Of a stretch of DNA of 64,000 nucleotides, positions 1,851 to 59,908 are shown piece by piece. The notes under the pieces were generated by a model. The model saw nothing but the letters and a program-made list of their open reading frames with translations, ran no database searches and had not been told where the DNA came from. The stretch comes from Owenia fusiformis. Lineage: Eukaryota. Each line of letters begins with the position of its first letter. Position 1 is the first letter of the stretch. The stretch lies in contig CAIIXF020000001.1 in NCBI GenBank assembly GCA_903813345.2, forward strand, positions 15,562,001-15,626,000. The letters are read 5' to 3'. The position numbers and the translations under genes are program-made.

Positions 1851-3332
1851 TTACTCAGTAGTGTCTGTATCCATGTATTTGAATATTTTAATCTGGCTTG
1901 TCTCTTCCCCAACCATGATCTGGCCCTCGTTATTCACAGTAATCGACTGAGGGTGCCTCAGGCCATCATCAATGTTGGCCAGGCACGTGATGAATTCTCC
2001 GTCAATGTTGAACAGCAACACTTGATTCCAATACATATCAGCAACTAAAATGTGACCGTGCCTGTCTGTACATACTCCACATGGGAATCTCAGCTTGACA
2101 CCTTTACATTCTGTGATGACTTTACGCAAGAAGCCATCCTCATTGAAAATCTTTATGGTGCCACATTGTGGGTAAGTGACAATGATGTCATTGTTGATGT
2201 TCGCAGCGCAGTACGCAGCCGCCTTTCCCAATGGAAAGCCAGTCTGCATCATGACATTCTTTGGGGTGGAATCATTCTCACAGATATAGATGCTTGGGGT
2301 TCGCCAATCACAAATCACAAGATCGCCACTCGTGTTGACAGCAATGCCATGTGGTACACAGAAATGACCTTCAAACTGACGAACGAAAGTGTTGTCGGAA
2401 TTGAACACTTTCACGTTAGATTGTGTATCCTGTGTATCTGTTATCAGCATATGGCCATTTTGTAAGATACATATGTCCTGGGGGAGGCCAAACTGAAATG
2501 TTCCACCGACTAACTGCTCCACGATGAAACTTTGAATCTTCCCATTTGTGTTGAATGTTTTCACACGCCTGTTTTTCCTATCGACCACCACAATATCACC
2601 ATTGGCTTTCACTGCAAGGCCAGTGGGCCAGCTACTCTGGGGGTCTCTGTCGGTAGTTGACGTAAACTCTTTCACCAAGACAGCTTTAGCAAGGGTTCCC
2701 CCACCCACAGAACTCAATATTCCAAAACTTTTAGGAAAATCAGCCTCCTTCATTGGGCCTTCTTGAAATATAACCGAGACATGCATAGACATGGAGCGAA
2801 CAAATTCAGCTTGCGCAGAAAGAAACTGTTCTTTTAGTTTATGGCGTAAATCTTCCACATCAAGATCATCTTGGGCAAACACGGTTTCTGCAGATGCACA
2901 GAGTGCCTCCGTAACCTTAAAGTTATTTTTCAATCGTTGTAGCTGATCACTGATCAGCTTCTGGCCATCCTTATATGTGCCTTCAATAGACTTCAAGAGA
3001 TCAGATGAGTAGGTATCTAAACACATTTTCAATATCTTATGCCGGTTAGTTATGTCCTTTGCCAACTGTTCTCTACTATTCCTTATTTCACTTTTAGCAT
3101 TTGTAAGTTTTTCAATGGCTTCTTCAATATCGGGTATTTTAGCTCGTAACTTTGCTACAAGTGATTCGATAGATTCTTGCTGTCTAAAGTTATTACTATT
3201 GTTTGATTTCTCTTTATTGTTGGATGTTGAGAAATCTGTATCAAACAGCGACTTTATTTTCTTAACAGGGGGAACTGGAGTCTCATCCTCTACTGGACTC
3301 CCAGAATCCTCCCTGGTTCTGCGGACTGACAT
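1851..3332 (-). CDS. Coiled-coil + NHL-repeat beta-propeller protein (TRIM2/3/71-like C-terminal architecture), 493 aa from MSVRRT
   Basis: 513-codon ORF; helical coiled-coil segment followed by NHL repeats (WPTGLAVKANGDIVVVD, PHGIAVNTSGDLVICD, PCGVCTDRHGHILVAD, PQSITVNNEGQIMVGE). Minus-strand acceptor TTTTCAG at 3365-3359 precedes the ATG at 3332, so an upstream exon exists. Confidence 0.85.
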   Translation of the reverse strand: MSVRRTREDSGSPVEDETPVPPVKKIKSLFDTDFSTSNNKEKSNNSNNFRQQESIESLVAKLRAKIPDIEEAIEKLTNAKSEIRNSREQLAKDITNRHKILKMCLDTYSSDLLKSIEGTYKDGQKLISDQLQRLKNNFKVTEALCASAETVFAQDDLDVEDLRHKLKEQFLSAQAEFVRSMSMHVSVIFQEGPMKEADFPKSFGILSSVGGGTLAKAVLVKEFTSTTDRDPQSSWPTGLAVKANGDIVVVDRKNRRVKTFNTNGKIQSFIVEQLVGGTFQFGLPQDICILQNGHMLITDTQDTQSNVKVFNSDNTFVRQFEGHFCVPHGIAVNTSGDLVICDWRTPSIYICENDSTPKNVMMQTGFPLGKAAAYCAANINNDIIVTYPQCGTIKIFNEDGFLRKVITECKGVKLRFPCGVCTDRHGHILVADMYWNQVLLFNIDGEFITCLANIDDGLRHPQSITVNNEGQIMVGEETSQIKIFKYMDTDTTE

Positions 3333-4724
3333 TACTATGAGGTGTACGATCTCGTAACCTGAAAAACACAAATAGAAAATGTCACTATACATCGGAATTT
3401 ATGACTGGACATTAGGGACATGTATTAACATCTTAGATCATCTAATAAAAATAAATATGGTATTCTGATGCTGCCCATCACTCCTACATTCAGATCCGCT
3501 ATGCATTATTTTGTAATTTTTTGTCAGATCGCAAGATGCATATAAGGCACATGTGCAATAGCCATGAAGATATGGAAGGGGATTTTAACTTTTATAAAAT
3601 TCTGTATATAATCACTTATAAGAAAACTTCCCACTATCCATGGAGTAATCACATAGATGCCGGCCAGATCTTAAAGATGGGGAGACACAAAATCGTAAAA
3701 TTTCAAAAAAGTGACCACCCTTCAAAGCATACCTACTTCCCCATGACAGATCTTGTGCTTAATCTATAGCTGAGACCTTCATCTTTCTATTTCTACCTTT
3801 TTGGTTTGAGTAAATAAGGTATGGACACTGTAATTTAAAGGAATTCTAGGCGATAAAAAAAAAAATATTGCTTCTGGAACAAGATCAAATGACTTTTACA
3901 TACTGTATACAGTATTCTTTACCCTACCTATTTTGTAATTTAAGTATAATATAAAAAAAATAGAAAAAAATAAAGTAGTTCTTCAAGCTAGCCAAGCTAG
4001 CCTTTATACAGTTTAATCTCGGTATGCCAGCGGTCAAAATGATGCAAAAAGTAACTAATTCGGTTTACTATGGACTGAGATACATCCACAACAATTACCT
4101 CGCTAACAAGTCCTCTTGGGTATATTCTTTCAAATGACGCTGAAAATAGATGTCTAGGTGTGGTGATAAGGTGTAAATTAAATAAATTCTTCAGATTTTA
4201 TTTCATTCTTTGCAATATTTTGTCAATTTTCAACCAGAAGTTCAAAACTAGGTCAAATCGGGACGAATTTGACTAAAAATGGATACTTAGCTCCAACTAT
4301 TGACTTGATTCTTGGCCAACCTTTTTGAAATACTTACTTAGAGGGAAGCCTGACACTCTTATTACCCAGGGAGCACCTGTGTATTTTTGCAAGTGACTCA
4401 TCCTGATCCAAAAGAATCTTGTCGGAATCTTTGAATTAGGTCACCGTGAATGGCATGATGATCAATGATGATCATGATCATCATCATCATTTACTCGAGT
4501 CTCTAGATTACTCGAGGCTAGATGTAATTTCAACTGGAATACTGTGAACTCCATTTGAAAAAAGCTGGCCGGCGTGTCAAATTTATTGAATATTCTAAAA
4601 TTCGCCAGATAAATCATTAATCAAAATGCGACCGGCTCAGCTCCTTGATGAGATATTGCATGATTTCGTCGGGATGTCATCTAAAATTAAAACAAAATGG
4701 CTCCAAAAAATGGTGATATTCCAC

Positions 4725-21700: not shown

Positions 21701-22526
21701 CTGCTTATGATAAGTTATTCTTTTTATACCATGGTCAGAGCAATGGTCTCAGTATATAATAGTAAGTGATAAATCACATATTTGGGATATGGATGATATT
21801 GGGATTAGAGGGATGATATGGATATCAACCCGGGTATTTATTCAAAAATTTTCAATTTTCAAAAAAGTTATTTGTTTCAAAATTTTTCATTTTTTCAAAC
21901 ATTTTCTCTCATTCAAAAAGGATTTTAGATGTATGTTGCTCTTGACCATGGTATAAGGTCGTTATTCACCTGTCGGGATGATATTGAGAATATTCCTCGG
22001 ATGGTATCAATATTTCACTCTGTCACTGCGTTCCCTCGGGAAATATTAATATCATGTGATATTCTCCATAGCAAATCCCTCTTGGTGAATAACTTCTTTG
22101 TATATACTTTCAACTAATTTAACAATGAAACAGAAACACAATGCATGCCAAACATTATCTATTGTATTATTGTATATATGGTTATTTCATAGTTTGCACT
22201 TGTATTCAGCAACTGTGTTTCTCAAACCCAATATGGGATAAACATTTTTAGGGTTAACACGTCAGACTTAACACGTCGCTTGAAGTAGTTACAGAAACGA
22301 GAGTTCTGACGCACCTTTAACATTGAGTCCTATGGGGAGGGACACGATTTTTCATAGTACCCTCCCTAACATGGGCTCCAATGGGGAGGGACATCTGTGA
22401 GCCTCCCTGAGCTCGGGAGGCACATACGGGGACCCCACCCCTCCCCCCTCGGCGTGGTGGCGTGTACATATTTCGGGAATCTCGGGCCCTAAGAGTAACG
22501 GACGCCCTACCCCACGACTATACGTT

Positions 22527-22738
22527 CCGGAAGTTAGCCATTTTGACAGGAAGTCAGCCATTTTGACCGGAAGTCAGCCCGGAAGTCAGCCATTTAACCG
22601 GAAGTCGGCCATTTTGAAGCTTTCTAGCAGGAAGTCAGCCATTTTGCATCTGTCTGGGCAAGAGGGTGACATCATAGCGGAAGTGAGGCATCTTTTAGTC
22701 GGCCTGGGTAGGTTTTAAAACGGAAGTTAGCCATCTTT
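22527..22738 (+). promoter_or_regulatory. Cluster of GGAAGT (ETS-like) and GCCATTT (YY1-like) motifs just inside the left TIR
   Basis: About eight GGAAGT and about six GCCAT(T/C)T motifs in ~20-bp units such as CCGGAAGTCAGCCATTTT. Confidence 0.45.
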
Positions 22739-23068
22739 TCCCTACCTCCTCCCACTTCCTCCTTACCTCCTCCTTACCTCCCCCCGCCTCCTCCCTACCT
22801 CATCATTACCTCCTCCCTATATCCTCCTTACCTCTTCCCACCTCTTCCTTACCTTCTCCCACCTCCTCTCTACCTCCTCCCGCTTCCTCCTTACCTCCTC
22901 CCACCTCCTCCCTACCTCATCATTACCTCCTCCTTACCTCCTCAAACCTCTTCCTTACCTCCTCCCACCTCCTCCCTACCTCCTCCTTACCTCATACCTC
23001 CTCCTACTTCCACCCAACCTCCTCCTGTCTCTTCTCCATCTTCCAAACCTCCTCCCCTCCCTTTACTT
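22735..23068. repeat. Pyrimidine-rich (ACCTCCTCC-like) low-complexity tract
   Basis: ~330 bp of degenerate CCTCCTCC/CCTTACCT units, almost no G on the plus strand. Confidence 0.9.
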
Positions 23069-23232
23069 TAATATTCAATAGTTTATAATGTCATAAATGC
23101 CTGTTTATGTTTACAATTGATCTTAATTGACACATTTTGAACCAATCACAATACTGCACATTAGAATATTCTTATATATTTTAAGTTGTCCATGTTTTGA
23201 GTCATTTTACTGATAGATCTTGAACAGACAAC

Positions 23233-24823
23233 ATGTCTTTCAATTGTTCTGAGTGTAGTGTGAATTTTACGAGAGGTGATAACCTATCAAGGCATATGAA
23301 TAAGTTTCATGGAGAAAAAATGCATCAGTCTGATGTTATGCTGAAACATCCGTTTACTATGATAGCAGGTATAGGCATGGACATGTTGAAATTAAAAGTC
23401 TGATAGGTTTCTAAATATAGAAAGAGAGCATGTCAATTTATTAAAAAAAAAATTTTTTGTTGTATTTTCAGCCGGACCAACATCGTCGGGGAAGACCTGG
23501 CTTATGAAGCACTTGATCAAAAATGTTGAACGGTATATATCCCCAATTCCTAGAAGAATCATCTGGTGTTATGGTCAATGGCAGCCTGCCTACGAAGAGC
23601 TAAGAAAATACCCACATTTGGAATTTGTGAAGGGAATACCAGAGGATATTGATGATTCAAGATACCTTGACACTTCAGTTCCTACTTTGATACTTCTCGA
23701 TGATCTTATGAATGAGGCAACAAATGATCAACGGATATGTGATCTCTATAGCAAAGGCAGTCACCATCGAAATCTGTCTGTGATATGCCTACTCCAGAAT
23801 ATGTATCATCAAGGAAAAATGAATAGATCGATGAGCTTAAACTCTCACTATATGATACTGTTTAATAACCCGAGAGATCGCCAACAGGTGGCATTCTTAT
23901 CGAGGCAGATGTACCCCGGAAATGGAAACAAGTTGGTCAGAGCATATACCAACGCAACTAGTCGACCCTATGGTTACCTGCTTCTTGATCTGAAGCAAGA
24001 AACTTCGGAGCACAGCAGATTGAAACCAAATGCCTTTACTAAAAGTGAAGTTGAATTTGAAAGTCATCACGATTCCCGCAACTTCAAGGAACCAATGAAT
24101 GATTCAAAACACTTACTTGAAAGACAGGGTATTTCAGAAGTTGACTATCCGACGACAACATTTATAAATAGTAGTGATGTTAAGAACTACCCTTACATGG
24201 AACGTGAATTTCGAGAAGACAGCATGGTATCCTGTGATGACTGTGGTTTAGTATTTGATAGCATTCACGACTTACAGAGGCATATAAAAAAGTGGTGTCA
24301 AGATCAGGGACCACTACCCAAGAGGATGAGGACCCAATCTACCCAAAATATTGAGGAGAAGATTCCTCAAGACAAAGACAATGACGTTGATGACGATGAT
24401 GGTGATTTGAAAGCAAATGAAACATTTGCATTCTTAAAGAAGTGGTCTATAAGACAGAATGAGGAAGACCACCGACGTAAAGTGGATGAGTATATGGATA
24501 GAGGGATGGATAAGACAGAGGCTGTAGAAAAGGCAGATAATAAACTATTGTCAAAGAATAAGGAAGAATTTATAAAAGGATATAAACAATTCGTCAAGCT
24601 AACGGTTGATGTAAAAGACAATGCGTTACACAGAAATATAATTGATTCAATAAATAATATGATGAGGAGGGGTGTCTCTGTGAACTTAGCCATTAGGAAG
24701 ACACTTTTAAAAAACAAACACAAGTTTGATGAGGTCTTTATAGAGGATACAGACCAGGAAAGTAGCTCCGAGGAAGAACAGAGTGAATCCGAAAACGAGG
24801 CTGTTGAATCAAGCACTGAGTGA
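23233..24823 (+). CDS. Polinton-type A32/FtsK-like DNA-packaging ATPase with N-terminal C2H2 finger and long C-terminal extension; 2 exons (23233-23368, 23472-24823), 495 aa
   Basis: Spliced product MSFNCSECSVNFTRGDNLSRHMNKFH...KHPFTMIAAGPTSSGKTWLMKHLIKN (Walker A GPTSSGKT); Walker B LILLDD; KGSHHRNLSVICLLQN; YGYLLLD; second Zn-finger-like motif CDDC...HIKKWC; acidic tail. Confidence 0.85.
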
Positions 24824-24882
24824 TAAATATTAGCAATTTAAAGAGAGATCGTCATTAAGGAGTCAGATTCCGACAGTGTAAG

Positions 24883-25980
24883 ATGGCATATCAAGACTAT
24901 TTAAAGAAATTATACTTTGACAGTCGAAATTCTGGAGCCTTTGCTGGACCAGACAAACTCTATAGAGCTGTACTAAATGATGGGAAATACCAGCTGTCCC
25001 GTTATCAGATAAAGAAATGGCTGGACAATCAAGAAGCTTATGGCCTACAGAGACCTTATAAGAAACGATTCGCTCGTAACAAAGTATATGTCTCGCATAT
25101 TGACGAACAATGGGATGCAGATCTTATGGATGTCTCTAATATATCATCGCAGAATGACGGGATAAAGTATATCCTGGTTGCGATTGACATTATGTCTCGC
25201 TTTGCCTGGGTTAGACCGCTACACTCCAAAACTGGAAAGGCAGTGGCGGAGGCTTTCGATGATATATTGAAAGAAGGTCGACAACCAGATGTCACTAGGA
25301 CGGACAAAGGTCAAGAATTCCGCGCTAAGGTTGTACAAACATTGTTGAATAGATGGGGAGTCCGCCATTTTGTTACGGGTAATACCCCCAAGGCCAACTA
25401 TGCAGAAAGATTGATAAAGACGTTAAAGACTAAAATAATGAGGTATATCACGTACAAACAGAACCATAGATTTATAGACAATTTACAAAACTTTGTGAAG
25501 AGTTATAACGCCACTTGGCATAGGGGTATAAAAATGGCTCCTAAAAATGTATCTAAAGACGATGAATTGGTTATTTGGTGGCGGATGTATTATCCTAAAT
25601 CAACTATCGTTAAAACCAAATCTAATCACATCTTTAAATTCCCCATTGGAGCTCTGGTAAGAATTACCCAGTCGAGACATGTTTTTAGTAGAGAATACGA
25701 CCAACATTGGACAGGGGAAATTTTTAAAGTAACGAAACGTTTTATTAGGCAGGGCCTCCCATTATATCGTTTAAATGATTTTCAAAATGAAGACATTAAG
25801 GGTACTTTTTACCAATCGGAGCTTCAAAGAGTACAAGCGAATGAAGATGATATTTGGAAAGTAGAAAAAATCTTGAAAACACGAACTAGACGAGGGCAAC
25901 GGGAACATTTAGTGCGTTGGCAATATTGGCCAAAAAAGTTTGATTCGTGGGTTAAAGATTCCGATTTAATACCTTTGTAA
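24883..25980 (+). CDS. Polinton-type retroviral-like (rve/c-integrase) DDE integrase with C-terminal chromodomain
   Basis: 365-aa intact ORF: WDADLMD, RTDKGQEF, YAERLIKTLK catalytic motifs; chromodomain WKVEKILKTR...HLVRWQYWPKKFDSWV. Confidence 0.92.
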   Translation: MAYQDYLKKLYFDSRNSGAFAGPDKLYRAVLNDGKYQLSRYQIKKWLDNQEAYGLQRPYKKRFARNKVYVSHIDEQWDADLMDVSNISSQNDGIKYILVAIDIMSRFAWVRPLHSKTGKAVAEAFDDILKEGRQPDVTRTDKGQEFRAKVVQTLLNRWGVRHFVTGNTPKANYAERLIKTLKTKIMRYITYKQNHRFIDNLQNFVKSYNATWHRGIKMAPKNVSKDDELVIWWRMYYPKSTIVKTKSNHIFKFPIGALVRITQSRHVFSREYDQHWTGEIFKVTKRFIRQGLPLYRLNDFQNEDIKGTFYQSELQRVQANEDDIWKVEKILKTRTRRGQREHLVRWQYWPKKFDSWVKDSDLIPL

Positions 25981-28116
25981 TTTGTGTATGATTCAATGAA
26001 GAATTTTGAATGTTATAATGTAAATATGTATTATAGTTGATGTATTTTGAAAAGAAGTGTGTTGACGAATTAGCAAATAAATATTTATCCCAACCAAATG
26101 TAACATCCATTAAACGGTATGATCTTAAATCGATGAAGGACGTTACACTAATTAAAGTTGATGGATGGTTGATTGATAATCGATAATCGAGCTAGGTCCG
26201 CACTTTAAAGTACAGTCCAGAGTAATTTGTTTCGTAAACTGACAGCTGGATGACCTTAAAACGATAAGACCTCGCGAGTACGAAACGCCTGGTTGATAGG
26301 TAATCGATAATCCGCCTGGGCCGCACTTTATAAATAAGGCAGTGACATTTACGACGCGTACTGGTTTATCGATTTATTGTTTTTGGCGGGAATTCGAATA
26401 GTATCCTTACAGTAAACGTACAAACGTGGGGTAGGGCGTCCGTTACCTTAGGGCCCGAGATTCCCGAAATATGTACACGCCACCACGCCGAGGGGGGGAG
26501 GGGTGGGGTCCCCGTATGTGCCTCCCGAGCTCAGGGAGGCTCACAGATGTCCCTCCCCATTGGAGCCCATGTTAGGGAGGGTACTATGAAAAATCGTGTC
26601 CCTCCCCATAGGACTCCATGTTAAAGGTGCGTCAGAACTCTCGTTTCTGTAACTACTGCTTGAGGCAAGATGCATAAACTATATAATTCCACGGCTATAA
26701 CTTGAAAAACGCCACTGTTGTGTCTATGCCCCTTCTGTATCTTACCCACGGGAACCTACAAAACAGAAAAATATATACATGTAATGACATTATGAAAAGG
26801 GGAAGTCCCGTCTATATAAATCCCTAGGTTCAAGTCGTGGAAACATCCCCATATTTGCAACAAAACAATGATAAACCAAAGTCGGTAAGTAGTAGTTGTA
26901 CCATATGCATGAATTGTAGCTTTTGGGAAGGATGATAAAACGCAAAAAAATAATTTAAATACTTGGTGAAGTCTGGCATTCATGATCTGACAGGAAATTT
27001 AGGGAAAGCCTTGATTATGATTAAACGTAAAAGCAAAAGTTGACCATTGTATCTTGGAGGTTATCATGACAAATGAAGACGACCACTGAATCCAAATCCA
27101 GTTCACTAAAACAATGTATTATAAACAAATAAACTAAATCACTATTACTATTACATGTATTATAAAATAATAAATAGATAACGTGTTTTATATTCGTACA
27201 ATGATGAATACATTGCAGCAAAGAGCTTGAAACAATGTTCACTGTTTACCCAGTTTAAGTTAAACTAAATAACAGCAACGCCAAAGCGTAGAAAATTAAT
27301 ATTTGATCTTGAAAGTATTAACATCAATTGCTAAGATTTGAACATTATGCTCTTGATGCAGAACACAATAGTGTTTTACTTTAATCGAATATGTTTATAA
27401 TCATATCATATGACATTAATGATTGCGTCCCATTTCATGATTATATGGAGATGTTACCTTGACATACACGTATTTTCAGAAATATTTGTTATCGTTGGTA
27501 GAAAACGGTAGATCTAACGTACTCTGGAAAATGCCCTACCTGCCCCTGCCGTGAATTGTGTTTTAACGTTTACTTTTTATTACCTTTAAATGCTTAGTTT
27601 CATCCTTGGTCAGAGGGAATAGCAAATATGACGTAAATAAAGGGATTACAAGCTTTATTCCTGTTCTAGTCTACTGTGAAGAAACGTATACCCAGTTTTT
27701 GGGTACCCGGTTTTTTCGACCGGGTACTTTCTCGACCGGGTACCGGGTACCAAGTTGGAATCCCGCATGGAGGATTTAGTACCCGGTACCCGGTACCCGG
27801 TACCCGGTTTTTTCTACAAACCCGTGTCGGTGATATCCAATATCCAGCCACGCGCTACTGTTTACACTTGAACAGTGAATGAAATGCGTTCTTTTGATTG
27901 GTTATTGCAGAATTATCAAATGATTCAATAGTAATTAGAGTTAAATAAATACTAATTTGACGTTCATTCATGATCTAAATAATATGTGTTAGAAATTACG
28001 TACATAAAAGTCTCACTTTCATTGAAGAAAGATTTATAGATCGCCTTCATCTCCGGGCTGACCTTTGTACTTCCGGTTCAGTAATTCTAAAAAATTTTAA
28101 TAAAAATTCTAATAAA

Positions 28117-47577: not shown

Positions 47578-50500
47578 TCATTTCCCCTTGATTATTTCAG
47601 TTCTTGCATCTGTTAGAGCATATCCTAGCCAGTTTTTGCCCCTCCATGTGTGTTTGTTCTTTGCCTTTGGGTTATCAGCACCTAAGCCTATCCCCCATAT
47701 AGTGTCTCTTGGACTAGCCTCAACTAAAATTGTCCCATCTGTCTCCAGTAGAACCTTCTTCAGTTCTTCATTTTGAGAAAACTGAAAAGTTAAAAATTGA
47801 AACCCATACCTGACTGTGAATAATGAGATAGGATATGTTTTGATTATTGGGTTAAAATTATTATGATTTGTTACTGTAACGACCCTCACTCTGCATGGTA
47901 AGTGCAAAAGGTATTGGTAGCGTTAAAGGGTTGATGAGTGAGTGGAAGAATCGTCACATTATTACCGGGTCCGTGTTGTGATTGTATATGCTCTCAAGGG
48001 TTTTACAGACATGATTGATTGAATGGCAAAATGGCTGAATATGTCGCACTGCGACATAAAACATACACCTAACTGAAAAAACAGACGATTTAGTTTAAAT
48101 ATAAATGATGACATAATTATGGGTTTATTTACAATGTGATTATAAATTGAGTATAGTAATTATGACAATAACACACATAGTGTGGAAATATATATATGAA
48201 TAAAAGTTCTGATATTGTGACACATGAATGATATATGGTGCAGCGTTACTCAATGGCAACGGGTACCCATATTCAAGGATAATGCACAAAGGTGGATCGT
48301 TATGCAACTAAGATCCCTGAAATGTGGTTACGATGGTATACATAGTATTTCCTATCAAGTACAATATATACTTAAGTAAGATTACATAGTTACCAAGAAG
48401 CTGATACTGCAAATACACATTAGTGAGCTCATATTCATAAATCCTACATTAACTACACATATAACATACAATACTTTCATCTGGGAGAGTGTGTGACACA
48501 ACTGGTGACCAAATAAACATACATAGTGATATGTATTACCATGACTTTGCAACAACCTTTGACAATGAGAACAACAACAACTGGCACCTTGGAGTGTACG
48601 ACATGACGCAAAGAACCGAATTACAACCACTGACAAAATGTAAGACCGACTAAAAATATCAACGTAACATTACGTATTCACAAGCTTGGGTGAAACATAC
48701 CAAATAATGACTATAACAATAACTTGTACAACATTTGATTCAACATACCAATTAGTGATAACAATGTTTACATGACTGCTCATTATGTAACATGCTAGGA
48801 AAATTAATGTCATATAACATGTGGGTGCAATCACATGACATGGATATACATGTCATGTAACTAGTGGGCGCCTGCTATGAAACATGCCGACGCGTGCTAC
48901 ATGACATTTGGGTGCGATTACACATCATGTGGGTACATGCTATGTAACAAGTGGGTGCATGTTATGTAGTAAGAGATCAATCATGAACATAAGTGAACCT
49001 GTAGACCCAAGTTGGTAGTAGTACATCACCAACTTATAATATTCCATGACACAACATAAGGGTGGGTGCAACAACTTGTATTCCCTTTGGTAATATTGGG
49101 TGCAACAAATTGTATCTCCCTAGGGTGGCTTTGGGGAAAGCCATACATGCATACAGTATAAAAATTATAGTACGACCTTAACGCAACGATACAATAAAAC
49201 CGACACTCCAACCATCGATAAACAATAGAATAGTTTAAGTTCAAAACTAGTATCAGGCTAGACCATAAACTAGGGTTCCATCAGGGTTTAACTCAACACC
49301 ATCATCTATCTGACACTAACTGTTGCCCAACAGTAAGACTTGTTGCATACAAGCGAGACATTACGTAACATACAGCTGCACAGGGTAGTTTGCAGTGTAC
49401 CAAAACATGATCAATTTGGGTATTGATCATCAACAATGAGATAAACTGACATGATCAAACTGGGTATTAATCAACAACAATGAAGCAAACTGACATGATC
49501 AAACTGGGTATGTTGATCATCAACCATGTAAACCAAATATGGGTCAAATAATTCCAATGTGCTTTTGCATTAACAAGTCAAATCCAAATCCAAATGTAAT
49601 ACTTGCCAATTTCACCACACTCAGTATACATAGAGTGCTTACAGCTTGAAATGAGGTGAAGGGTGTCCATCCACATGAGGTATTTGCATCAGCATATGAG
49701 TGGTTGGTTGTTGGTGGTATGTAGTTCGCCATCACTTGACAGACGTGCTGATATTTGCATGTCATGCGGGAGGGGTGAACCTCAAACTTCAAGCCTGATT
49801 TGGGGGTCAGACTTCGTGCAGATCCTGTTGTAATCACCTCATGTGGACGGACGACTTACTGGTGTAAATCGTGAGACAGTTTAGACACCTCGACGGTCAA
49901 CGATAGCGACATTTTGAGTGAAGATAGCGGAGCAAATCACGAATGATTTACTCGAAAAACATAAGATGGCTACCTGTCTTCTGCGCACGCGCAGCGCCTT
50001 ACATAAATTACGAACTTATGTAAATCCACAAAAACGGCCATAACTTCGCCAATACGGGACCGATTGCAAAGTTTGAACTACCTATAGAGAGCTGATTTTA
50101 CGTATTATGTGCATATCCTACTAGATTAATGATAAAACATAGTAAACAGGGTGAAATTTAGACCAGAAAACTACGAAAGTAACCTTGACCTTTTTACGTC
50201 AAAAGTACGAACGGAACTAAGAATAGTTCGAGAATTACGCCAAAAGTACGAACGGGAGCAACAATATCCACAAATTACTAGAATAGGACACTTTAGTGGA
50301 TAATATCGATCTAAACATGTATGTGTGTATATAAACAACATTAAGTGAAACCCAACAGTGGTGAGACGTCGAACTGACAGTACTGAATATCAGCAAACAA
50401 ATAAGTAAATCTGTTGGGTTATCACATTACAGTTAGCAAGGAATAAATGTTAGTAGATAATAATTATGTTTATCCTTGTGTACCTTAGCGATGCTGCCCT

Positions 50501-57039: not shown

Positions 57040-59880
57040 TTAGTGCTTCACTCTATGGGAATAACAATGATCCCTCCAGTCGCCATCCAAGTCACGTTCA
57101 GGTTGAGTCCTCCAATGTCTCATTCTATTCATTTTGGATAGGGGTGCCTTAGCTGAGTAAGTTCTAGGTTCCTCATCCGTACTGTCAATTCTAAGGTTGT
57201 AGTCTTCACTTAGCCCAGACACTTTACAACATCTTTTGTTCCTGGCACATCTATGTCCTCTGAAGCAGGAAAAACCAGCTAGGTCCGCAGCTGTCCTCCT
57301 AGACGATCTCTTGGGATGTGTCGAGCTGTCTCTCGTCCCAAATCTTTCTCGTTGATCTACCTCTCTGTCTTTGACTTCACTCGCTTGATCTTTAGGCACT
57401 CCTGAGTCTATAGGGTGATCAGCAAAACTTCCTTGATTCTCTGACTCAAATGTCATTTTACACTGGCGATAGTTCAATACAGCTCCAGAGGCAGCTAAGT
57501 AATCTGTGCCTAAGATTCCGTCAAAGCCAATGTCGGCCACAACAACCTCTATGTTCTCTGTATGACCATCAATGTTAACCTCAAGACATGAAACACCTTT
57601 CGTTTGCAGCGGTTGTCCACCAGCTTGCAAGATAACTCTCTTAGGCGGCTCAAGCTTGGGTCTTCTGTGTTTAGGTATATTCTGGTAGACCTTTGAACTC
57701 ATGATAGTACTAGCTGCTCCAGAGTCAACTAAAAATGAAACATTGGTGTCGCAAACTGTACCATGTGCCACTATCTTCTGAGTGTCCTTGGGAGACTGAA
57801 CATCATTCCCCTGCAGAGAAAGAAATTCAATGGTAGCAATCTGGCCAGATCTCTCATGTACTGTTTTATCTCGCTCTTCGGCACGCTTCCTTGAATAACA
57901 ATCAGCTATCCGGTGACCAGGCTTGTGACAATAGAAACATTTAGGTCTATTGTTCATGTTCTCCCTATTTGTAGATTCCAATCTGGTTAACTTCATCAGG
58001 TCAACCATTTTCTCCAGGTTCTTGGTGCAAGCTTCTTGCACAGCTTGTTGCATTTGTTCTATCATTTGAGCCATCTTCTGGAACACATCTTCCTTATTAT
58101 CAGGAGTACTTACTGAGTTGCAGTACTCTTCCTCGGAATCGATGAAGTTCACCCTTAACTTTGGTTTTTGGCCTTTCCTTATTCGTTCTGATTCTAGAAA
58201 CGACTCCTCCTTGAGGGCTACTTCTATGGCCTTATCGAGTGTAATGCATTCCTTCAAGTGTATTGTTCGTCTTATATCATCATCCTGAATAGCTTGCTCA
58301 AAGCTCCGTCTCGCTAGGCGATCTTGGGCTGACTGGCTCATCTCCGGATAAGCTAAAGCTGTGAGCCTGCGGATGTCCTGACCCAATGCCGGAAGGGATT
58401 CCTTTGGTTTTCGAATTCGGCCAACTAACTCTGCCTCATAGACGTCAGCTTTACCCCCAGGGCCAAAACGCTTCTCCAGGGCTAGGAGGAGTTGATCGTA
58501 GCTATAATCATGTCCCATCTCTAGCACTATTTGTTGGGCAGGTCCTCTCAGACTTGTTGCTAAGAACCTCCTCTTCTCCTCTTCCGACCATTTATTAGCC
58601 TCCCCACAAATCTCGAAATATGCTCTGTAATCTTGCCATGGTGTAGTTCCAGAATAAACGTCAGGTTTTATTTTGCTTTTGCTGGATTGTTGAGAAGTTC
58701 CTTTTACAAGTTTATCACATAACTTGGAGCACATTTTGACAAGCTCTGCTGATAGATTTGAACCATGAAGGCTATCATCATTTTCCGATCTGTCCACTGA
58801 ACCAGCTGGCTTTGGACTAGGAGATCTCTTCTTTGGTGAATCTTTAGGTTGATTAAGTGGCTCTTTCTTCCGGAATGGAGAAAAGCATTGAAAAGAGGTG
58901 GAATCAGCATGCTCATCCCCTGACTTGTCCCCAATTGGACCAAAACCCTCTAAATCTTCAGGTTGCTGCTGATTGAATTCCTGGGTTTTATCCTCCATCA
59001 AATTTGAACCGGGACTCAGCAAAACTTTATCTTGCCTACGCAGCTGCCAAGGCTTTGTCACACCTGAAGCCAATGGGGTAGGTGTAAAACAGTCTTCAGA
59101 CCTGGTGATTGAGGTAGTTTTTGGCATTGTAGGCTGATGTTGGCTATCATCCATCAAGGAAGTCTGCATTCTGGTGACATTTCCTGCATGACGGGGGTTA
59201 TCATATGATGGTGGAATACTAGCTTGAATTTTCTCCATCTGACTCTTGATACCCTGTAGTTGTGTCTGTTGTTGATCCTGACAACGTCGAACTTGCTCTG
59301 CGATCTGGGTAATGTTGTGTACTTGAGTACTTTGAGTCTCCAATACTTGCTTCATACACTTCTGTTGGGTTTCAGCCAAGTTTTGCATCTGTCTTTGTTG
59401 AGCCACCAAAGATTCACTAAACATCTCAATCCTTCTCTCAATCTTGCTTTCTATTACGTTTAAGTCTGGTCTCCTTGGATCCTCTTCTCTAAACCTCCTG
59501 GTTGATCCGCCAACAACAGAAGAAGTTAAAGGAAATCTTTGTCTTCCTTGGGGATCTCTTCTTTGAGAGATGGGGTCAAATGGCGTCTCAAGTTCTGTCG
59601 ATACACCTCCTGTCCAATATCCTGTACTCGATAAACTGGGCAACCCTCTCTGCTCAGTATTAATCTCAGTCATTTTGGGTCTGGCTCCTTCTGCCAGGGT
59701 GACCTTCCCAGGGGACTGTTCCTGTTCCGCATCATCTTCTATCACTGGTGCTGTCTCATCAGCGGCACCTGGATTATCGATTTCCATATCATCTGACTTA
59801 AGAAAAACTGTTTTCTCCAGGTCCCCCTCAGTTACGTCCTCAACAGCTGGAGGAGGTGGAAAGTCAGTTCCTTGTTCCAT
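57040..59880 (-). CDS. Gag-protease polyprotein (946 aa), no RT/RNaseH/integrase
   Basis: Gypsy capsid-like region KPDVYSGTTPWQDYRAYFE...WSEEEK...LRGPA; zinc knuckle CFYCHKPGHRIADC; aspartic protease FLVDSGA...GILGTDYL. Confidence 0.92.
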   Translation of the reverse strand: MEQGTDFPPPPAVEDVTEGDLEKTVFLKSDDMEIDNPGAADETAPVIEDDAEQEQSPGKVTLAEGARPKMTEINTEQRGLPSLSSTGYWTGGVSTELETPFDPISQRRDPQGRQRFPLTSSVVGGSTRRFREEDPRRPDLNVIESKIERRIEMFSESLVAQQRQMQNLAETQQKCMKQVLETQSTQVHNITQIAEQVRRCQDQQQTQLQGIKSQMEKIQASIPPSYDNPRHAGNVTRMQTSLMDDSQHQPTMPKTTSITRSEDCFTPTPLASGVTKPWQLRRQDKVLLSPGSNLMEDKTQEFNQQQPEDLEGFGPIGDKSGDEHADSTSFQCFSPFRKKEPLNQPKDSPKKRSPSPKPAGSVDRSENDDSLHGSNLSAELVKMCSKLCDKLVKGTSQQSSKSKIKPDVYSGTTPWQDYRAYFEICGEANKWSEEEKRRFLATSLRGPAQQIVLEMGHDYSYDQLLLALEKRFGPGGKADVYEAELVGRIRKPKESLPALGQDIRRLTALAYPEMSQSAQDRLARRSFEQAIQDDDIRRTIHLKECITLDKAIEVALKEESFLESERIRKGQKPKLRVNFIDSEEEYCNSVSTPDNKEDVFQKMAQMIEQMQQAVQEACTKNLEKMVDLMKLTRLESTNRENMNNRPKCFYCHKPGHRIADCYSRKRAEERDKTVHERSGQIATIEFLSLQGNDVQSPKDTQKIVAHGTVCDTNVSFLVDSGAASTIMSSKVYQNIPKHRRPKLEPPKRVILQAGGQPLQTKGVSCLEVNIDGHTENIEVVVADIGFDGILGTDYLAASGAVLNYRQCKMTFESENQGSFADHPIDSGVPKDQASEVKDREVDQRERFGTRDSSTHPKRSSRRTAADLAGFSCFRGHRCARNKRCCKVSGLSEDYNLRIDSTDEEPRTYSAKAPLSKMNRMRHWRTQPERDLDGDWRDHCYSHRVKH

Positions 59881-59908
59881 TTTCGAATATTGTATTACTA
59901 ATCAACAC

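Follow-up and report, generated by a model that had tools for sequence, protein, structure and literature searches.

The DNA analysed here, referred to as the window, is a stretch of 64,000 nucleotides (nt) from Owenia fusiformis (GenBank assembly GCA_903813345.2, contig CAIIXF020000001.1, positions 15,562,001 to 15,626,000 of the forward strand), and all coordinates below are counted from its first letter. It contains an element of 4,374 bp (22284-26657) that carries a gene for a predicted packaging-type ATPase followed by a gene for an integrase and has a 6-bp target-site duplication, GCTTGA; the size and the duplication were established from inverted ends that are both flanked by GCTTGA. 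The ATPase gene is interrupted by 103 nt, which are probably a true U2-type GT-AG phase-1 intron specific to the lineage of this compact, Maverick/Polinton-derived element. The parts of the gene and of its protein, given in amino acids (aa) where appropriate, are as follows.

23233..23368, + strand: ATPase exon 1, from ATG 23233, 45 codons and one base (MSFNCSEC...HMNKFH...KHPFTMIA), by translation and alignment
23369..23471, + strand: predicted phase-1 GT..AG intron of 103 nt, GT at 23369-70 and AG at 23470-71
23472..24823, + strand: ATPase exon 2, 449 aa and stop, TGA at 24821-24823
aa 3-26, within exon 1: C2H2 finger, Pfam zf-C2H2 at E 3.1e-5 and 24.6 bits, slightly below the cut-off of 25.2
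End of exon 1: strand preceding the P-loop, ..KHPFTMIA, by alignment
23474-23497, + strand: Walker A motif, GPTSSGKT, by translation of exon 2
23684-23704, + strand: Walker B motif, ..LILLDD, by translation of exon 2
24233-24298, + strand: CCHC finger, C-x2-C-x12-H-x4-C, by conserved residues
24419-24742, + strand: helical C-terminal domain, by structure model

When the 103 nt are removed, the split codon G|CC encodes Ala, GPTSSGKTW follows, and the frame stays open from 23472 to the TGA at 24821-24823, for a spliced product of 495 aa (45 + 1 + 449). Read without splicing from ATG 23233, the frame instead stops at TGA 23401-23403 after 56 aa and yields a peptide with the finger only, while the program-made open reading frame (ORF) protein begins at Met 23504, 3' of the P-loop. 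The coordinates of the ATG, the exons, the GT-AG stretch, this TGA and this Met in a preliminary description of the locus all proved correct on re-reading, and the short finger-only peptide that it predicted from unspliced RNA is what translation gives.

Exon 1 and exon 2 were entered as separate rows with 18 homologues in a 20-row alignment, in which the end of exon 1 (..HPFTMIA) and the start of exon 2 (GPT) fell exactly one column apart. That single column is the split codon; the spacing is the same as that of HPFTMIVAGPTGCGKT in the homologue P0014, and alignment to the homologues requires neither a gap nor an insertion here. The preliminary description had stated that intron removal restores the HPFT..GPxxxGKT start of Polinton ATPases, and this was borne out by the exact family spacing among homologues that are Maverick/Polinton-type A32-like ATPases. 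Although 17 GT-AG pairs in the neighbourhood leave one frame open, 23369/23471 alone retains every conserved residue; given that it is the sole pair to do so and also gives the exact family spacing, the interruption goes beyond chance.

The features of a spliceosomal GT-AG intron are present: its borders, a restored open frame with a homologous protein, a pyrimidine tract, and a branch-like site. The stretch begins with GTATAG and ends with TTTTCAG (stopping at 23471), pyrimidines make up 13 of the 19 nt ahead of the terminal CAG, and branch-like motifs lie 31 nt (TTTAT) and 68 nt (CTGAT) upstream of the AG. The G+C content is 25% in the intron versus 39% in the exons.

Within the intron, two further AGs, with their last bases at 23420 and 23426, stay in frame with the same donor, and their use would lengthen the protein by 17 or 15 residues ahead of the P-loop; splicing to them is a possible source of minor isoforms. 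A splice from the exon 1 donor to the AG directly before the integrase ATG was rejected by eye, as the frames mismatch.

Identity of the ATPase and distribution of the intron among relatives

Searching with the exon 2 product returned 493 database relatives at E <= 0.001, many with Pfam Pox_A32 and C2H2 fingers, and those with names among them were bivalve molluscs. In a 71-row alignment, D76, C254, H270, and C275 were invariant and D77 and C257 nearly so, which indicates that the Walker B aspartates are kept and that the second finger is of CCHC type. Many database homologues are annotated with PF04665 (Pox_A32), two metagenome relatives exceed its cut-off of 22.8 (L011 at 25.5 bits and L014 at 26.5 bits), and some relatives match Pfam Adeno_IVa2. 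The ATPase part shares 45-54% identity with ATPases that stand beside pPolB in full-length Mavericks (L014, L044, L071, and L079 were compared). Protein-primed polymerase (PF03175) adjoins the ATPase in L014, L044, and L079 and an rve/chromo integrase lies near it in L014, L071, and L079; these four loci are ordinary full-length Mavericks.

An AlphaFold model covering exon 2 only, without exon 1, had a predicted local distance difference test (pLDDT) score of 79, with residues 1-195 and 316-423 confident. For this model, the structural comparison with A32-like ATPases that the preliminary description proposed placed the STIV2/STIV B204 packaging NTPase first among solved folds (E 6.9e-4, probability 1.00, template modelling score on target 0.56-0.59), with HerA and EccC ranking next, and the Atlas neighbours of the ATPase were Pox_A32 clusters. 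On the basis of the sequence identity to pPolB-linked ATPases, the B204 match, and these neighbours, the window's ATPase is classified, from sequence and model, as A32-like and of FtsK-HerA type. When the helical C-terminal domain (316-423) was compared with 48,161 chains, the best match had a Z of 7.2 over 62 residues and consisted of generic helical hairpins, with no usable match. Neither ORF product had an exact entry in the protein collection searched, and a scan of viral contigs gave 73 pattern matches and 0 relatives.

In order to follow the intron among relatives, the best 80 of 457 confirmed metagenome loci were examined. The Walker A frame continues upstream through HP[FLM][TS] in 72 of them, with the finger, HPFT, and Walker A sharing a single open frame. 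Two of the other eight are contiguous with variant motifs (L016, L072), two are cut at a contig end (L048, L077), two are degraded (L026, L073), and two have introns (L002, L004). The same uninterrupted order of C2H2 finger, HPFT, and Walker A occurs in single ORFs of database homologues (e.g., P0002, P0003, P0009, P0010, P0014, P0015, P0088, and P0093), and the finger is present in 18 of the 46 database homologues that include HPFT. Since relatives carry the three parts contiguously, the fusion was not created by splicing, contrary to the preliminary description, which held that splicing joins the finger to the ATPase; judged from these sequences, the finger-ATPase architecture is ancestral and the intron only interrupts it.

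The introns of L002 (124 nt, GTAAGT..TTTCAG) and L004 (163 nt, GTGATT..TTTTAG) are both in phase 1 and fall within the codon for the Gly of GKT, at a position six codons 3' of the one in the window; their removal restores GPTSCGKTYF, and their retention would also cut the protein short right after the finger and HPFT segment. A quick IQ-TREE tree of the ATPase domain (81 rows) grouped the window with L001, L049, and L073, all three intron-less, with support of 83 in the Shimodaira-Hasegawa-like approximate likelihood ratio test (SH-aLRT), and placed L002 and L004 elsewhere as sisters (SH-aLRT 84). Because of these separate tree positions, the two intron positions are best read as separate gains. 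We infer that the window's intron was gained after its lineage split from the intron-less relatives.

Database calls may be affected by such introns as well. Twenty-four of 70 database homologues begin downstream of HPFT, and four of those start with MSGKST, as would be expected of an ORF caller's output behind a P-loop intron; the 24 may therefore be truncated ORF calls caused by P-loop introns.

DNA reads, RNA reads, and explanations of the interruption

The element is contained in 20 run rows from six studies under the same species label, and none of those listed is recorded as RNA. Reads were mapped to 23060-26149 in 30 bins of 103 nt, one of which is the intron. In DNA run X16, a 286-nt contig (23164-23449) runs collinearly from exon 1 into the intron with 0 differences at a depth of 1947. 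The summed depth of the intron bin was 2761, compared with 2303 and 2582 in the adjoining exon bins, with contig depth not equivalent to copy number, and no intron-less joint of 23368 to 23472 was found among the X16 contigs listed. The 103 nt are thus not seen as a copy-specific insertion, which the preliminary description had named as a finding that would speak against an intron. One variant contig, at a depth of 44.7, lacks 80 nt of intron sequence, and another is one base short in an A-run; up to 4 variant contigs occur at one site, indicating that multiple versions of the element exist.

Copy differences were analysed for the 40 best-supported of 124 (84 more fall outside this set), and the selection argument rests on these 40. 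In exon 2, 9 of 13 differences were synonymous, and the integrase had 20 synonymous differences out of 27, where 19-20% is expected. The excess gave p = 1e-4 for exon 2 (p = 0.013 against a 35% null) and p = 3e-9 for the integrase (p = 4e-5 against a 35% null). Purifying selection acts on exon 2 and on the integrase among copies. That copies with the 103 nt have diverged while their ATPase protein stayed under selection speaks for removal of the interruption from the RNA.

Three RNA runs (X22, X23, and X24), tied to the element by species label only, placed 71, 58, and 74 reads, respectively, at a depth below 5. X22 and X23 had nothing in the bins of exon 1, 0.08 and 0.02 in the intron bin, and 4.0 and 4.5 in the first bin of exon 2. 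Four X22 reads with two start places fit the window from 23470 (AG|CC) onward and have unlike, AT-rich letters before it. Given that they carry five differences, these reads are assigned to a diverged copy (~10%). Their loose part aligns to 23376-23396 of the intron with a score of 24, a value that 1.6% of random stretches from the window attain. The diverged copy therefore appears to carry a shorter, related interruption next to the same AG|CC, which counts in favour of the intron.

Several of the observations weigh against splicing of the 103 nt or limit the case for it. No junction of 23368 to 23472 was listed in X22, X23, or X24, where listing needs 3 reads, and at a depth below 5 this absence is evidence neither for nor against splicing. 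Coverage of the intron bin in X24 (1.97 + 0.78) is about equal to that of its neighbours (2.74 + 0.58 and 2.27 + 0); the X24 reads in the intron region are mostly opposite in orientation to those of X22 and X23 and may represent antisense RNA or DNA carry-over. The four X22 reads of the diverged copy appear unspliced. At the donor, CAG|GT, agreement with the usual consensus is limited to positions -3 to +3, and the intron side, GTATAG, is weak when compared with the usual GTAAGT. None of the 80 loci has an intron at the window's codon, 72 being contiguous there, and the nearest relatives L001, L049, and L073 are without one, so the conservation of intron position that had been proposed as a check was not found. 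The window's own protein gave no match to Pox_A32 at E <= 0.1. The limits stated above on contig depth and on the set of 40 copy differences belong here as well.

An unspliced, disabling insertion would leave the ATPase gene dead and its copies mobilised in trans or immobile, and it would account for the lack of listed spliced reads, the few X24 reads collinear through the stretch, the unspliced look of the X22 diverged-copy reads, the weakness of the donor beyond +3, and the absence of the intron from 72 of 80 related loci. A random insertion, however, would seldom bring a GT and an AG into positions from which splicing recovers the open frame together with the exact family spacing. The depth of the 103 nt in X16, which is close to that of the exons, the mostly synonymous changes in exon 2, and the canonical introns close by in related elements also oppose a dead gene, which we consider unlikely. 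An introner or miniature inverted-repeat transposable element (MITE), i.e., a small intron-generating transposon that brings its own splice sites, would explain the CAG at 23366-68 and again at 23469-71 as a 3-nt target duplication, and introners have been reported inside dinoflagellate Maverick-Polinton-like elements (PMC11957031). The 103 nt have no second copy in the 64-kb window, where only low-complexity matches of at most 16 nt were found, and no terminal inverted repeat was seen within them; CAG at both sites is also plain splice consensus, and this origin is highly improbable.

The preliminary description had suggested a splicing switch between a small DNA-binding regulator and a finger-targeted ATPase, whose finger might give specificity for the ends of the element. 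Under such regulated retention, the 56-aa finger peptide from unspliced RNA would act as a regulator or inhibitor, in a manner comparable to intron retention in the Drosophila P element, and spliced RNA would give the finger-ATPase. The preliminary account of the intron anatomy, of the restored HPFT..GPxxxGKT start, and of the 56-aa peptide holds, whereas splicing as the origin of the finger-ATPase fusion does not, the fusion being ancestral in relatives. A switch of this kind would draw on the stop after 56 aa when the intron is retained, on the weak donor, and on the independent L002/L004 intron six codons downstream, which would cause the same truncation if retained. With no downstream exon junction, a retained RNA would also be no obvious target of nonsense-mediated decay. 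On the other hand, 72 of 80 relatives do without any intron there, two intron positions are too few for a pattern, and a single C2H2 finger on its own usually binds DNA weakly. Regulated retention therefore seems quite doubtful as an explanation, and a finger-only peptide made from unspliced RNA could be either a by-product or a regulator.

The explanation that we consider probable remains a true phase-1 intron, presumably removed by the spliceosome from the RNA of an element expressed as an ordinary nuclear RNA polymerase II gene. Because exon 1 holds the strand leading into the P-loop and exon 2 begins at the P-loop, an active ATPase would come from spliced RNA only. Transcription would begin downstream of a TATA-like site, the 103-nt intron would be spliced out to give the 495-aa finger-ATPase, and the integrase would cut and join at the AGTAGT ends to generate the 6-bp duplication. 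The ATPase, without a capsid to fill, would serve the element's DNA handling in another way.

The compact element and its lineage

The remaining features of the element, from left to right, are given below.

22278..22283, no strand: left target-site duplication GCTTGA, read directly and identical to 26658-26663
22284..22526, + strand: left terminal inverted repeat, starting AGTAGTTACAG, pairing with 26657-26415 by blastn against the window
22529..22734, + strand: 7-copy array of GGAAGTNRGCCAT (one copy with 1 mismatch), directly inside the left end
22739..23026, + strand: CT-rich tandem repeat with a 21-nt unit, ~12 copies, upstream of the ATPase gene
23173..23178, + strand: TATATA, 60 nt 5' of the ATG, a possible TATA box
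24883..25980, + strand: integrase of 365 aa, with rve core residues D80, D141, and E175 and a C-terminal chromodomain at 25855-25968
26076..26081, + strand: AATAAA, the sole one downstream of both genes
26415..26657, - strand: right terminal inverted repeat, starting AGTAGTTACAG, by blastn and reading of the sequence
26658..26663, no strand: right target-site duplication GCTTGA, read directly

The inverted ends align by blastn over 244 columns at 97.5% identity, and both begin with AGTAGT. Directly inside the left end, GGAAGTNRGCCAT has 7 + strand matches against 0.28 expected across the whole window, in agreement with tandem-repeat finding. We take the halves of this unit to resemble ETS (GGAAGT) and YY1 (GCCAT) sites; the array may act as a promoter or enhancer, or it may contain protein-binding sites of the element. 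The homologues P0007 and P0070 start with translated tandem repeats of the CT-rich kind, suggesting that a repeat block ahead of the gene may be common to these elements. Inside the right end (26150-26400, read on the - strand), two similar stretches of ~45 nt with ATCGAT-containing motifs form subterminal direct repeats.

The integrase was matched by Pfam rve (E 7.9e-11) and Chromo (E 2.2e-6), and D80, D141, and E175 are invariant in a 7-row integrase alignment. Its ATG lies 59 nt after the ATPase stop, with no AATAAA or ATTAAA between them; the second ORF may be expressed via an internal promoter or from a bicistronic RNA. In X22 and X23, RNA depth is greater over the integrase than over the ATPase.

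Frames of at least 100 aa between the ends comprise only the two genes, besides frames in the CT-rich repeat and one antisense frame. Pfam matches on the element were confined to fingers, rve, and chromo, with no polymerase, capsid, or protease gene. At the level of ORFs, without a structural search for degraded remnants, there was neither an ORF nor room for capsid proteins or a maturation protease.

The relatives place this gene pair in a wider group. All 22 rows with a long C-terminal ATPase part sit in one 30-row group of the tree (SH-aLRT 90), and the 4 polymerase-linked rows fall outside it. The long-C-terminus label changes 2 times on the tree, compared with a mean of 6.4 when shuffled, and 0 of 500 shuffles were as low. 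An integrase follows the long ATPase within ~250 nt in L003, L005, L027, L035, L053, and L073. These integrases are 37-57% identical to the window's (at least 43% in all but L053, at 37%), while those of canonical elements are 35-40% identical to it. In L005, no further frame of at least 120 aa was present in 7.5 kb. The whole contig L002:1-4242 has 340-bp inverted ends (93.8% identical) and carries the long finger-ATPase with its 124-nt intron along with an ORF ending in a RING-type finger, and it has no integrase; gene content thus varies among compact elements.

With moderate confidence, and with the reading resting on short metagenome contigs, we regard the compact elements as a distinct lineage derived from Mavericks rather than a one-off deletion. 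No two-gene ATPase-plus-integrase derivative of Mavericks, and nothing on DUF7128 or on an N-terminal finger on Maverick ATPases, was found described in the literature searched, which excluded subscription journals and Repbase Reports.

Gene order and finger placement also differ among the loci. In L004:664-3957 and L059:1788-3759 the two genes share a strand and the integrase comes first, an order opposite to that of the window. In the full-length Mavericks L014 (843-5852) and L044 (1310-5917), the polymerase ORFs have N-terminal C2H2 fingers, so fingers have been attached to more than one core protein.

Comparison with known elements and significance

The element resembles Mavericks/Polintons in its 6-bp duplication and long inverted ends starting AGTAGT; for vertebrate Mavericks, PMC8097293 gives a 6-bp duplication, a twice-repeated AGT as the commonest end motif, and no introns in intact elements. 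It further resembles them in its rve integrase with a C-terminal chromodomain and its A32-like ATPase with an HPFT..GxxxxGKT start. In contrast to them, it is 4.4 kb long with two genes, lacks a protein-primed polymerase, capsid genes, and a protease, and has an ATPase of twice the length that includes a CCHC finger as well as a helical C-terminal domain. It also has an intron, unlike intact vertebrate Mavericks, which that source reports to be intron-less. Given that all Polintons encode the polymerase by definition, according to PMC5499653, the window element is a derivative rather than a strict member of the Maverick/Polinton group. Compared with A32-like packaging ATPases (STIV2 B204, poxvirus A32, and adenovirus IVa2), its ATPase shares the Walker A and B motifs and, in the model, the same fold; it differs in that the element has no capsid and in the added zinc fingers and C-terminal helical domain.

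Ginger2/TDD elements, as PMC2836005 describes them, are likewise small, are bounded by inverted ends, encode a DDE enzyme of rve type, and duplicate 6 bp of their target. They are unlike in their TGTNR ends and RTATAY targets, compared with AGTAGT and GCTTGA in the window, and the word ATPase has 0 occurrences in the main text of that paper.

The bacterial systems MuA/MuB, TnsB/TnsC, and IstA/IstB pair a DDE enzyme with an ATPase helper that is an AAA+ protein. The window element would be analogous in that genes for a DDE recombinase and a P-loop ATPase adjoin each other between short inverted ends; it differs in that its ATPase is of FtsK-HerA packaging type and from an animal, and the likeness is one of analogy only. 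When the third intron of the Drosophila P element is retained, the product is an N-terminal fragment that binds DNA and lacks the catalytic region. By analogy, retention in the window element would leave a finger piece without its catalytic part, although the protein families are different.

In PMC8097293, Mavericks/Polintons are regarded as virus-like, intron-less, and 15-20 kb long. The window element departs from this picture in size, since it indicates that Maverick stock can shrink to a 4.4-kb transposon with an integrase and an elaborated packaging-type ATPase, and in gene structure, since compact elements would acquire ordinary spliceosomal introns, which fits nuclear, host-like gene expression. 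More notable than the intron itself is its context, a compact two-gene Maverick derivative with a packaging-type ATPase and introns. A packaging ATPase under purifying selection in a capsid-less element is a puzzle that bears on how such elements move. ORF-based annotation cuts these ATPases at the P-loop, as happened to the window's own and perhaps to the 24 of 70 database homologues as well.

A broader proposal, put forward tentatively and rather unlikely when its parts are taken together, is that the compact elements are long-lived capsid-less Maverick derivatives whose packaging ATPase has been kept for a new job. The ATPase might be the integrase's DNA-handling partner, forming a two-protein transposition machine by analogy with MuB, TnsC, or IstB, or it might be the motor with which a satellite packages its 4-kb genome in capsids supplied by full-length Mavericks. 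As part of the same proposal, the fingers and the C-terminal domain may recognise the element's ends or the 7-copy array, and introns gained twice at the boundary of finger and P-loop may let retention yield a finger-only inhibitor.

Elsewhere in the window, a 953-aa frame at 57040-59901 (- strand) with PNMA/gag-like and aspartyl protease domains marks a retroelement. An NHL-repeat protein frame lies at 1851-3398 (- strand), and a NADAR-domain exon lies at 47578-47922 (- strand).

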